From: Escherichia coli | GTDB taxonomy: Bacteria; Pseudomonadota; Gammaproteobacteria; Enterobacterales; Enterobacteriaceae | NCBI RefSeq assembly: GCF_036507355.1 | Contig: NZ_AP027877.1 | Length of the DNA stretch: 64,000 nucleotides | Strand: one strand, 5' to 3' | Shown here: positions 21 to 51,280 of the stretch, piece by piece | Layout of the letters: the number at the start of each line of letters is the position of its first letter | Position numbering within the stretch: the stretch's first letter is position 1 | Notes under the pieces: generated by a model | The model's input: only the letters and a program-made list of their open reading frames with translations | Told to the model about the DNA's origin: nothing | Database searches by the model: none | Program-made: the position numbers and the translations under genes

Positions 21-1161
<1,141 letters not shown>

Positions 1162-1189
1162 TCGTTCGTTATTGATGATAATAGATAAT

Positions 1190-1325
1190 GTGTGCACGGA
1201 CGGTCCCCTCGCCCCTTTGGGGAGAGGGTTAGGGTGAGGGGAACAGGCCAGCACTGGCGTGAAAAATTACTCTCACCTCGATCCTCTAACGAATTGGGCC
1301 TGCGGGAACATTCTGCACACTCATT
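1190..1325. repeat. GC-rich palindromic intergenic element in the recA-recX spacer (family not assigned)
   Basis: tgtgcacggacggtcccctcgcccctttggggagagggttagggtgagggg ... cctgcgggaacattctgcaca; internal inverted complementarity and imperfect terminal inverted repeats (tgtgca...tgcaca). Confidence 0.45.
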
Positions 1326-1355
1326 GACTATTAAATCTGTTTATCAGCAAAACCT

Positions 1356-1386
1356 GGGTCGCATCTGCGGCCCTTTTGCTTTTTTA
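1356..1386 (+). terminator. Rho-independent terminator/attenuator between recA and recX
   Basis: gggtcgcatctgcggccc stem-loop followed by ttttgctttttt, 18 bp before the recX start. Confidence 0.7.
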
Positions 1387-1403
1387 AGTTGTAAGGATAT
1401 GCC

Positions 1404-1904
1404 ATGACAGAATCAACGTCCCGTCGCCCGGCATATGCTCGCCTGTTGGATCGTGCGGTACGCATTCTGGCGGTGCGCGATCACAGTGAGCAAGAACTGC
1501 GACGTAAACTCGCGGCACCGATTATGGGCAAAAATGGCCCAGAAGAGATTGATGCTACGGCAGAAGATTACGAGCGCGTTATTGCCTGGTGCCATGAACA
1601 TGGCTATCTCGATGACAGCCGATTTGTGGCGCGCTTTATCGCCAGCCGTAGCCGCAAAGGTTATGGACCTGCGCGTATTCGCCAGGAACTGAATCAGAAA
1701 GGTATTTCCCGCGAAGCGACAGAAAAAGCGATGCGTGAATGTGACATCGACTGGTGCGCACTGGCGCGCGATCAGGCGACGCGAAAATATGGTGAACCTT
1801 TGCCAACTGTCTTTTCAGAAAAAGTTAAGATCCAGCGTTTTCTGCTCTATCGTGGCTATCTGATGGAAGATATCCAGGATATTTGGCGAAATTTTGCCGA
1901 CTGA
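1404..1904 (+). CDS. recX: RecA regulator RecX
   Basis: 166-aa [39 protein letters not shown]... directly downstream of recA. Confidence 0.95.
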
Positions 1905-5397: not shown

Positions 5398-5490
5398 GGT
5401 GAGGTGGCCGAGAGGCTGAAGGCGCTCCCCTGCTAAGGGAGTATGCGGTCAAAAGCTGCATCCGGGGTTCGAATCCCCGCCTCACCGCCA
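5398..5490 (+). tRNA. serV: tRNA-Ser (anticodon GCU)
   Basis: 93-nt sequence ggtgaggtggccgagaggctgaagg...ctcaccgcca with long variable arm and anticodon loop ctGCTaa. Confidence 0.93.
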
Positions 5491-5493
5491 TTT

Positions 5494-5570
5494 GCATCCG
5501 TAGCTCAGCTGGATAGAGTACTCGGCTACGAACCGAGCGGTCGGAGGTTCGAATCCTCCCGGATGCACCA
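5494..5570 (+). tRNA. argV: tRNA-Arg (anticodon ACG)
   Basis: 77-nt gcatccgtagctcagctggatagagtactcggctACGaaccgag...ggatgcacca. Confidence 0.93.
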
Positions 5571-5634
5571 TCTCTTACTTGATACGGCTTTAGTAGCGGT
5601 ATCAAAAAATCTGCAGTAAAGTAAGTTTCCCGAT

Positions 5635-5711
5635 GCATCCGTAGCTCAGCTGGATAGAGTACTCGGCTACGAACCGAGCGGTCGGAGGTTCGAATCCTCC
5701 CGGATGCACCA
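5635..5711 (+). tRNA. argY: tRNA-Arg (anticodon ACG)
   Basis: Identical 77-nt tRNA-Arg copy. Confidence 0.93.
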
Positions 5712-5773
5712 TCTCTTACTTGATATGGCTTTAGTAGCGGTATCAATATCAGCAGTAAAATAAATTTCCCGAT

Positions 5774-5850
5774 GCATCCGTAGCTCAGCTGGATAGAGTA
5801 CTCGGCTACGAACCGAGCGGTCGGAGGTTCGAATCCTCCCGGATGCACCA
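5774..5850 (+). tRNA. argZ: tRNA-Arg (anticodon ACG)
   Basis: Identical 77-nt tRNA-Arg copy. Confidence 0.93.
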
Positions 5851-5952
5851 TATTCTCCGTAATCATCAGTGATGATGGTTAAGAAGGATTTTCTTACTTG
5901 ATATGGCTTTAGTAGCGATATCAATATCAGCAGTAAAATAAATTTTCCCGAT

Positions 5953-6029
5953 GCATCCGTAGCTCAGCTGGATAGAGTACTCGGCTACGAACCGAGCGGT
6001 CGGAGGTTCGAATCCTCCCGGATGCACCA
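5953..6029 (+). tRNA. argQ: tRNA-Arg (anticodon ACG)
   Basis: Identical 77-nt tRNA-Arg copy. Confidence 0.93.
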
Positions 6030-8936: not shown

Positions 8937-9011
8937 AGAAAAAGGCCACTCGTGAGTGGCCAAAATTTCATCTCTGAATTCAGGGATGATGATAACAAAT
9001 GCGCGTCTTTC
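8937..9011 (-). ncRNA. micA: MicA (SraD) small regulatory RNA
   Basis: Minus-strand reading gives gaaagacgcgcatttgttatcatcatccctgaattcagagatgaaattttggccactcacgagtggccttttt, which matches the MicA sequence as I recall it; ends in a stem-loop plus U-tract. Confidence 0.8.
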
Positions 9012-17664: not shown

Positions 17665-17745
17665 GTAGGCATGATAAGACGCGCCAGCGTCGCATCAGGC
17701 ATTGTGTACAGAACGGCGGATGCGGCGTATACGCCTTATCCGCCC
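17665..17745. repeat. REP (repetitive extragenic palindromic) elements
   Basis: gtaggcatgataagacgcgccagcgtcgcatcaggc and cggatgcggcgtatacgccttatccg palindromic units. Confidence 0.8.
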
Positions 17746-33734: not shown

Positions 33735-34087
33735 TTGTCGGATGCGGCGTAGACGCCTTATCCGACCTGGATCCCCGTAGGCCGGACAAGACGCAAAGCG
33801 TCGCCTCCGGCATGGGTGCGCCGATTGTCGGATGCGGCGCAAACGCCTTATCCGACCTACATTTCCGTAGGCCGGACAAGACGCGTAAGCGTCGCCTCCG
33901 GCATGGTGCGCCGAATGTCGGATGCGGCGTAAACGCCTTATCCGACCTACACTCTCGTAGGCCGGACAAGACGCGTAAGCGTCGCCTCCGGCATGGTGCG
34001 CCGAATGTCGGATGCGGCGTTAACGCCTTATCCGACCTACACTCTCGTAGGCCGGACAAGACGCGCAGCGTCGCCTCCGGCATGGGG
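33735..34087. repeat. BIME/REP array (about 4 tandem units of ~85-90 bp)
   Basis: Repeated tgtcggatgcggcg...acgccttatccgacct...gtaggccggacaagacgcg...gcgtcgcctccggcatgg units between gabT and gabP. Confidence 0.85.
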
Positions 34088-43047: not shown

Positions 43048-43123
43048 GGCCCTTTAGCTCAGTGGTTAGAGCAGGCGACTCATAATCGCTTGGTCGCTGG
43101 TTCAAGTCCAGCAGGGGCCACCA
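43048..43123 (+). tRNA. ileY: tRNA-Ile2 (anticodon CAU/lysidine type)
   Basis: 76-nt ggccctttagctcagtggttagagcaggcgactCATaatcgcttggtcgctggttcaagtccagcaggggccacca. Confidence 0.9.
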
Positions 43124-50917: not shown

Positions 50918-51280
50918 TGGTGGAGCTGGCGGGAGTTGAACCCGCGTCCGAAATTCCTACATCCTCGGTACTACATGCTTAGTCAGTCTTTACATTCGCT
51001 TGCCAGCTGCGGACGGACACGCCACTAACAAACTAGCCTGATTAAGTTTTAACGCTTCAACCCCAGGCAGGGCTTCCACGCGATCTCTTTTGGGTTTGAC
51101 CTCTCTTGATCCCCGTCCTAAGAGCGGAGGCTAGGGAGAGAGGGCTCTAAGCAGGTTATTAAGCTGCTAAAGCGTAGTTTTCGTCGTTTGCGACTATTTT
51201 TTGCGGCTTTTTACGAGGCCAACCGCCCCTCGGCATGCACCTTGGGTTTCGCAAATCCCGTCGAATCCAGAATCAGCCCC
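50918..51280 (-). ncRNA. ssrA: tmRNA (SsrA)
   Basis: Minus-strand reading starts ggggctgattctggattcgacggg and ends gttcaactcccgccagctccacca; encodes tag peptide ANDENYALAA (gcaaacgacgaaaactacgctttagcagct); 363 nt. Confidence 0.95.

Follow-up and report, generated by a model that had tools for sequence, protein, structure and literature searches.

BoxC is a repeat that was described in the 1990s (Bachellier et al.) and later studied as the 'PIT element' by Hoyne and Maher (2000-2002); both were equated with the TM_ECO motif by Holder et al. (2015; PMC4666352). According to that work, the motif is 34-37 nt long and consists of a CCCTCnCCC block, a loop, a G block (GGGAGAGGG), a second loop (TTA or CCG) and a second G block (GGGTGAGGG). 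Escherichia coli MG1655 carries 23 copies, all of them intergenic and without orientation bias, and at five sites a type A motif is paired with an inverted type B motif. The copy number differs between phylogroups, with 25-30 copies in B1 strains, 19-24 in phylogroup A and 1-2 in B2 (PMC4666352). The family was biased neither in orientation nor in distance nor towards a gene class, had no connection with gene function, and was not associated with mobile elements or plasmids in a BLAST analysis (PMC4666352). In vitro the motif adopts a stable triplex, as found with an oligonucleotide identical to the core studied here (PMC4666352); footprinting in vivo gave no support for such a structure. Published in vivo tests of PIT/BoxC elements revealed neither promoter nor terminator activity, nor any effect on RNA polymerase.

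Other described repeats have a comparable layout. BIME-1 (RIP) consists of two inverted REP units around a linker with an IHF site, and is likewise an arrangement of inverted GC-rich palindromic units around a linker, located beside 3' terminators. ERIC/IRU is another intergenic, imperfectly palindromic repeat of about this size and is transcribed with the neighbouring genes. The REP325-type regulators of 3' untranslated regions are structured repeats as well, lying between co-oriented operon genes at strain-variable locations (bioRxiv 10.64898/2026.03.23.713779). As to the locus studied here, recX has been shown to be co-transcribed with recA (Pages, Koffel-Schwartz and Fuchs 2003, DNA Repair 2:273).

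The stretch of E. coli DNA that we analyzed, here called the window, is 64,000 nucleotides long and begins in the recA-recX-alaS region, with the start of alaS at position 2032. The features of this region are collected in Table 1.

Table 1. Features of the recA-recX region, in window coordinates
Feature	Position	Strand	Size, sequence or detail	Basis
recA CDS	100..1161	+	stop TAA 1159-1161	ORF
recA-recX spacer, long allele	1162..1403	+	242 bp	
Whole BoxC composite element	~1174..1355	+	~182 bp; ends approximate to a few bases	alignment with other copies
Left AT-rich flank, terminal inverted-repeat arm	1174..1205	+	GATGATAATAGATAATGTGTGCACGGACGGTC	inverted-repeat pairs; aligns to family left flank
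BoxC / PIT / TM_ECO motif, type 'A mm'	1206..1241	+	CCCTCGCCCCTTTGGGGAGAGGGTTAGGGTGAGGGG	exact identity to published entries
Four-G-tract (G-quadruplex-type) motif	1219..1241	+ (recA sense strand)	GGGGAGAGGGTTAGGGTGAGGGG	regex match
Conserved linker	1242..1268	+	27 nt; small hairpin GCCAG-CA-CTGGC at 1247-1258	kept in five aligned copies; pairs in MFE fold
Decayed inverted type-B box	1269..1306	+	ACTCTCACCTCGATCCTCTAACGAATTGGGCCTGCGGG	aligns to intact inverted B boxes elsewhere, ACCCTCACCCCGACCCTCTCCCTGAAAGGGCGAGGGGG
Right flank, terminal inverted-repeat arm	1307..1355	+	ends in GTTTATCAGCAAAACCT	inverted-repeat pairs; aligns to family right end, ..GCCAGTTTGTTAGCAATCT
recA intrinsic terminator	1346..1385	+	core stem-loop 1356-1373 (GGGTCGC-ATCT-GCGGCCC), U tract 1374-1385	terminator scan
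recX CDS	1404..1904	+	WP_000140506.1	ORF; RefSeq annotation of identical DNA

Identity and anatomy of the additional DNA

The 1062-nt recA ORF aligns over its full length to recA of other Escherichia, and RefSeq annotates identical DNA as recA. The ORF coordinates bear out the distance between the recA stop and the recX start given by the sequence-only reading, which had also taken the spacer of K-12 to be much shorter. The annotation of MG1655 agrees with this: with recX at 2822139-2822639 and recA at 2822708-2823769, the K-12 spacer is 68 bp, and a K-12-like strain gave the same picture. An alignment of both alleles gave the window 174 more bases than K-12, between flanking genes that are 99.2-99.8% identical to those of K-12. 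The two alleles do not differ between GGGTCGC (1356) and the start of recX, a stretch that includes the terminator hairpin, its U tract and the ribosome-binding region, and the distance from the terminator to recX is the same.

As judged by identity and alignment to known copies, these 174 bases are one palindromic BoxC composite, composed of an intact A box, a linker, a decayed inverted B box and AT-rich flanks. The core sequence was traced to PMC4666352 by a full-text literature search, and the 36-mer at 1206-1241 is letter for letter that of TM_ECO nos. 7, 11 and 15 of MG1655 (Holder et al. 2015, Table 1, PMC4666352). The copy at this very position has, moreover, already been catalogued. 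It is no. 91 in Table S8 of Holder et al. 2015, located via its coordinates in strain E24377A (NC_009801 2983331-2983296), where it sits inside the 242-bp spacer between recX (2982633-2983133) and recA (2983376-2984437). The enlarged spacer is thus an already known, ordinary strain polymorphism.

The ends of the element were set by alignment with the copies at gcvP-ygfF and sstT-alx in K-12-type strains and at yggL-yggN and yijF-gldA in other strains. The homology with these four copies reaches well past the 36-mer and takes in the left flank, A box, linker, inverted B box and right flank; the left flank of the family reads GATGACAAAGT, an A run and GTGCTCGGACAGT. In the published descriptions BoxC is a 34-37-nt motif with no flank consensus, whereas the copies aligned here have about 30-50 nt of common flank on each side. 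The window element agrees with BoxC / PIT / TM_ECO in its core identity, its intergenic position, its dispersed and multi-copy nature, and its strain-variable presence. As to the pairing of a type A with an inverted type B box, the linker and a B-box homologue are present at 1242-1306, but this homologue is too degraded to match the TM_ECO motif. In the predicted plus-strand RNA fold it nevertheless forms pairs with the A box. Because of this decay, only one TM_ECO motif, the A box, is detectable in the window element. The A box is predicted to form a local RNA hairpin of -23.7 kcal/mol, and its G-tract motif includes the cHPG1 sequence of Doluca et al.

The internal complementarity and imperfect terminal inverted repeats seen in the earlier reading are both present: the arms 1179-1208 and 1304-1333 (30 nt) are 70% complementary, and 1172-1181 and 1341-1350 are 90% complementary. 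The description of about 135 bp as GC-rich holds for the core (58.8% GC at 1190-1320, against 49.6% in the window) and fails for the flanks, which are AT-rich (25-29% GC) and extend the element to the length given in Table 1. The GC-rich 37-mer that had been quoted lies at 1205-1241, and 100 shuffles of the window contained no match to it with at most 3 mismatches. The 36-mer occurs once in the window, and no second BoxC copy was found within the 64,000 nt.

Elsewhere in E. coli the element is common. Almost every E. coli genome has other copies, with a median of 7 places per genome by megablast and 15 by blastn, and these are intergenic among the matches listed. The MG1655 RefSeq annotation has no repeat features at its BoxC sites. 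On plasmids the number of BoxC places varied with the query from 5 to 32; for example, the core is found with 100% identity over 38 nt on the 154.7-kb plasmid of strain 94_0962 (NZ_CP074792.1:1627-1664), to be compared with the lack of plasmid association in PMC4666352.

Two other repeat families were considered and rejected, in both cases by scoring reference motifs entered by hand. For REP/BIME (REP units of the type GCCGGATGCGGCG...CCGGCCTAC) the best score in the spacer was 7-9, against 29-34 for true REPs and 27-34 in true BIME-bearing spacers, and for the 44-nt core of ERIC/IRU the spacer scored 8/44, against 34 in Silvania confinis. The palindromic units of BIME-1 are REPs and those of the window element are BoxC, the BIME-1 examples compared here are of comparable size (about 125-170 bp against about 182 bp), and ERIC/IRU has no sequence similarity to the window element. 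The sequence-only reading had spoken of a miniature inverted-repeat or REP-like insertion. The part that stands is an inserted palindromic repeat with many copies; the REP unit and a target duplication are missing. Its structural reading was right wherever we tested it, while the BoxC / PIT / TM_ECO family had not been recognised.

Distribution, junctions and origin of the long allele

The long allele was found in 1634 of the 5426 complete E. coli genomes (about 30%), and in the remaining genomes the match falls into two pieces spanning 427 bp, which corresponds to the short allele. A search with the element alone gave 1632 carriers, with an identity of 99% or more in 1548. Named carriers are E24377A, by annotation, and O104:H4 HUSEC2011 and an O111:H8 strain, by sequence match; K-12, O157:H7 and UTI89-type strains among the matches listed have the short allele. 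The carriers whose phylogroup was checked, which are the named strains within the 1634, belong to B1. Over positions 1-25000 of the window, the best match among the 5426 genomes is 98.9% identical and in five pieces, and 165 genomes alone cover 80% in one place, so this region looks mosaic relative to the sequenced strains.

To place the allele in a wider context, RecX-encoding loci were taken from 79 species-representative genomes, and the spacer could be measured in 74 Enterobacteriaceae species. It is 66-73 bp long in 48 of the 74, which is the mode across the family, and exceeds 100 bp in 19. E. whittamii and one further non-coli Escherichia representative (L008, recX about 95% identical) have the K-12-type short sequence. 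Since the short form is both the mode across the Enterobacteriaceae and the form present in these two representatives, the short spacer is the ancestral state and the long form is due to an insertion. The 242-bp allele is also present in Escherichia sp. E1V33, whose identity to the window is 95.4% in recX and 97.9% in recA, with the same decayed B box and few substitutions. The presence of nearly the same allele there suggests either that it is old or that it has crossed species boundaries by recombination. We propose that the element entered the recA-recX site once in Escherichia and that the long allele then probably spread by homologous recombination.

The junctions do not look like those of a clean insertion. 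In K-12, 20 nt (TCGTCTTGTTTGATACACAA) separate the stop codon from the terminator, while in the window 12 diverged nucleotides (TCGTTCGTTATT) precede the element; there are additional substitutions and a net loss of 8 nt of flanking sequence. No target-site duplication or flanking direct repeat was found when the filled and empty alleles of E. coli, E. whittamii and E. albertii were aligned. These observations bear on whether the element is a MITE, mobilised by a transposase through recognition of the inverted repeats at its ends. The inverted terminal arms, the presence/absence polymorphism among strains, and outer ends (GATGACAAA ... TTTGTyAkC) that are conserved among copies at unrelated loci would all fit such an origin. 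However, besides the missing duplication and the altered junctions, the alternative allele at other loci is a different repeat within the same boundaries and not an empty site, and the published BLAST analysis found no mobile-element association (PMC4666352). On balance, we regard movement as a MITE as highly doubtful. We know of no partner transposase for the BoxC element.

The same spacer is enlarged by other repeats elsewhere. In E. albertii it is 238 bp long (L009:1263-1500) and contains a BIME-1 unit of two inverted REPs around a linker, preceded by a decayed duplicate of the left half of the terminator (ACACAAGGGACGTATCTGCGAC); the right junction CAGCAAAACCT and the terminator are common to this allele and the BoxC allele of E. 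coli. The 1022-bp spacer of Escherichia sp. MOD1-EC7003 (L007:479-1500) is a tandem array of five or more units, about 170 bp long and made up of a BIME-1 (two inverted REPs) and a terminator-like hairpin CAGGGGCGCATTTGCGGCCCTGA, so a read-through transcript would have several hairpins to pass before recX. In Silvania confinis an ERIC/IRU copy fills the spacer of 195 bp (L021:1306-1500) upstream of the conserved terminator. Several representatives of Citrobacter, Kluyvera, Raoultella and Salmonella have other spacers of 100-150 bp. In all the enlarged spacers described here the extra DNA lies upstream of the conserved terminator hairpin, and the presence of BIME-1 and ERIC in the same spacer of other species indicates that the site tolerates insertions.

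This variability could also be read in terms of the hypothesis of Holder et al. that the motif is a DNA fragile site, where a triplex, quadruplex or cruciform would stall replication and destabilise the recA-recX spacer. The stable triplex in vitro and the greater variation of TM_ECO loci among strains than of control intergenic sites (PMC4666352) are in line with this, as are the spacer lengths of 67, 238, 242 and 1022 bp within Escherichia and the sstT-alx copy, which has a collapsed-hairpin allele and an unrelated replacement allele. Nevertheless, the in vivo footprinting lent no support to triplex formation, and the spacer variability in other species is caused by other repeats, not by BoxC. 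Moreover, the long allele itself is stable: 1548 of about 1632 carriers have it at 99% identity or more, and it has hardly changed in a species whose recX is 95% identical. Fragility of the spacer therefore seems improbable, and a single insertion that persisted as a common polymorphism is the reading that we prefer.

RNA structure and termination ahead of recX

As it lies downstream of the recA stop codon and upstream of the terminator, the element is expected to be transcribed in the recA 3' untranslated region and in the minor recA-recX read-through transcript; the co-transcription is taken from the literature. Read-through from recA into recX reportedly occurs at a low level. The RNA of the spacer has a predicted folding energy of -92.6 kcal/mol, compared to -68.2 ± 4.8 kcal/mol for shuffled sequences (z = -5.06), and none of 200 shuffles folded as well. 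The secondary structure and the further genomic copies for which the sequence-only reading had asked were thus both found. The whole element is predicted to form one long imperfect hairpin, of -72.6 kcal/mol on the plus strand and -55.4 kcal/mol on the minus strand. The element folds back on itself in the prediction for the spacer (about 1179-1334, an imperfect hairpin of some 155 nt), which would leave the terminator as a separate hairpin. C-to-T decay of the C-rich arm should by itself favour the plus strand, so that its advantage of 17 kcal/mol is not evidence of selection.

The part of the spacer proximal to recX had been taken for a terminator, and it is indeed an intrinsic-terminator hairpin with a U tract. 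The hairpin at 1356-1373 is followed by TTTTGCTTTTTT, and the hairpin and U tract at 1356-1385 are the same as in the recA terminator system of Pages et al. (2003). The 5' shoulder of the hairpin differs, reading AGCAAAACCT in the window and ATACACAA in K-12, and this lengthens the predicted stem: AGCAAAA (1346-1352) would pair with UUUUGCU (1374-1380). The predicted fold of the terminator is -19.0 kcal/mol in the window against -16.6 kcal/mol in K-12, that is, 2.4 kcal/mol more stable. Between 1000 and 2100, the hairpin at 1356-1373 alone qualifies as an intrinsic terminator; the BoxC hairpin is without a U tract and is followed by AACAGGCC. The promoter scan of the same region gave no promoter-like site, and TTGACT at 1324-1329 was rejected as a promoter by eye, having no acceptable -10 hexamer. 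An Rfam scan of 900-2100 at a permissive threshold returned chance-level matches only (best E = 0.7-9), far below the gathering thresholds. Two ORFs over the element (1192-1407 on the plus strand, 71 aa; 1099-1254 on the minus strand, 51 aa) were rejected as coding, as the copies of the family occur in both orientations and with indels.

The sequence-only reading had suggested that the element could change the read-through into recX. In this case the hairpin, the G-quadruplex motif or the lengthened terminator stem would act as a regulatory RNA on termination or mRNA stability and give a different RecX:RecA ratio. The element does lie in a transcribed region just upstream of a terminator, it has a strong predicted structure (z = -5.06), and its plus strand folds better than its minus strand. 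The extended terminator stem might alter read-through to some degree, and a hairpin of -73 kcal/mol with a G-quadruplex motif could affect RNA decay, RNase III processing or the access of Rho. By analogy, REPs in comparable positions are partial terminators and mRNA stabilisers (bioRxiv 10.64898/2026.03.23.713779). On the other hand, the REP325-type regulators belong to a different family, and the published tests of PIT/BoxC were negative for promoter and terminator activity and for effects on RNA polymerase. The family has no bias in orientation, distance or gene class (PMC4666352), the element is absent from 70% of E. coli and from most Enterobacteriaceae, and C-to-T decay of the C-rich arm yields the plus-strand advantage without selection. 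In addition, the terminator core and the ribosome-binding region of recX are unchanged. We therefore consider a regulatory role very unlikely, and nothing found here suggests that the element changes the RecX:RecA balance. Were it to do so, about 30% of the sequenced E. coli, including O104:H4 and O111 strains, would have a different RecX:RecA balance in the SOS response.

Taken together, the locus is very probably best explained by a BoxC composite that was inserted once in Escherichia, became a common polymorphism and is carried as a near-neutral passenger. The identity of the element is established by sequence comparison. Its near-neutrality we infer from the unchanged terminator and recX signals, the lack of a promoter in the region scanned, the BoxC hairpin without a U tract and the negative published tests. 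Any effect on recX would be small and, if anything, would consist of slightly stronger termination and slightly less read-through, since the right end of the element supplies the A tract that lengthens the terminator stem. The spacer of this core DNA-repair operon looked oddly enlarged, but the enlargement is a routine polymorphism from a known repeat family and as such matters little. The 174-bp difference between the two alleles has some practical value, as recA and recA-recX serve as targets for typing and PCR.

Possible exchange between BoxC composites and BIME-1

The loci used to define the element ends also gave a lead concerning its relation to BIME-1. At yggL-yggN (L085:1180-1370 compared with L086:281-400), 65 of the 5426 genomes have a BoxC composite, and K-12 and most others have a BIME-1 within the same boundaries; both kinds of element start with GATGACAAA and finish with TTTGTTATC. 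At yijF-gldA (L084:1195-1380 compared with L087:200-440) the BoxC composite is present in 641 of the 5426 genomes, and BL21 has a BIME within the same boundaries, although here the shared ends of the two are not clear. BIME-1 has the same outermost 9-mers (GATGACAAA / TTTGTyAkC) as the BoxC composites. It is found in the recA-recX spacer of E. albertii and, in other E. coli, at the sites that BoxC occupies at yggL-yggN and yijF-gldA.

It is conceivable, though on the whole unlikely, that BoxC composites and BIME-1 are interchangeable cassettes on the same outer ends, swapped at terminator-adjacent sites. The lead comes from a handful of loci that were picked for containing BoxC or BIME-1 elements, and it is presented as a lead and not as a result. 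A full-text literature search for the shared flank motif gave no matches, and no consensus in the TM_ECO flanks is reported in PMC4666352. If such swapping did take place, it would point to a common mechanism of insertion or replacement with the 5' shoulder of terminators as its target. In that case the recA-recX spacer would be a natural allele series (67, 238, 242 and 1022 bp), whose members might differ in recX read-through.

A third BoxC locus, sstT-alx, has three alleles: a full composite of A and B boxes (K-12, L004:1480-1620), a 76-bp collapse to a single hairpin (AH50) and an unrelated GC-rich sequence of about 430 bp (BL21). The other small repeats of the window are of the REP type and score as Rfam naRNA4; they occur as a single copy at 17668-17745 and as a run of three on the minus strand at 33780-34037. 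Further RNA features of the window are a tRNA-Ser followed by four tandem tRNA-Arg(ACG) genes at 5398-6029, the small RNA MicA at 8940-9011, a CAT-anticodon tRNA at 43048-43123 that ARAGORN called Met and that, from the gene order of K-12, may be an ileY-type tRNA-Ile2, and a tmRNA at 50918-51280 with the tag peptide ANDENYALAA.
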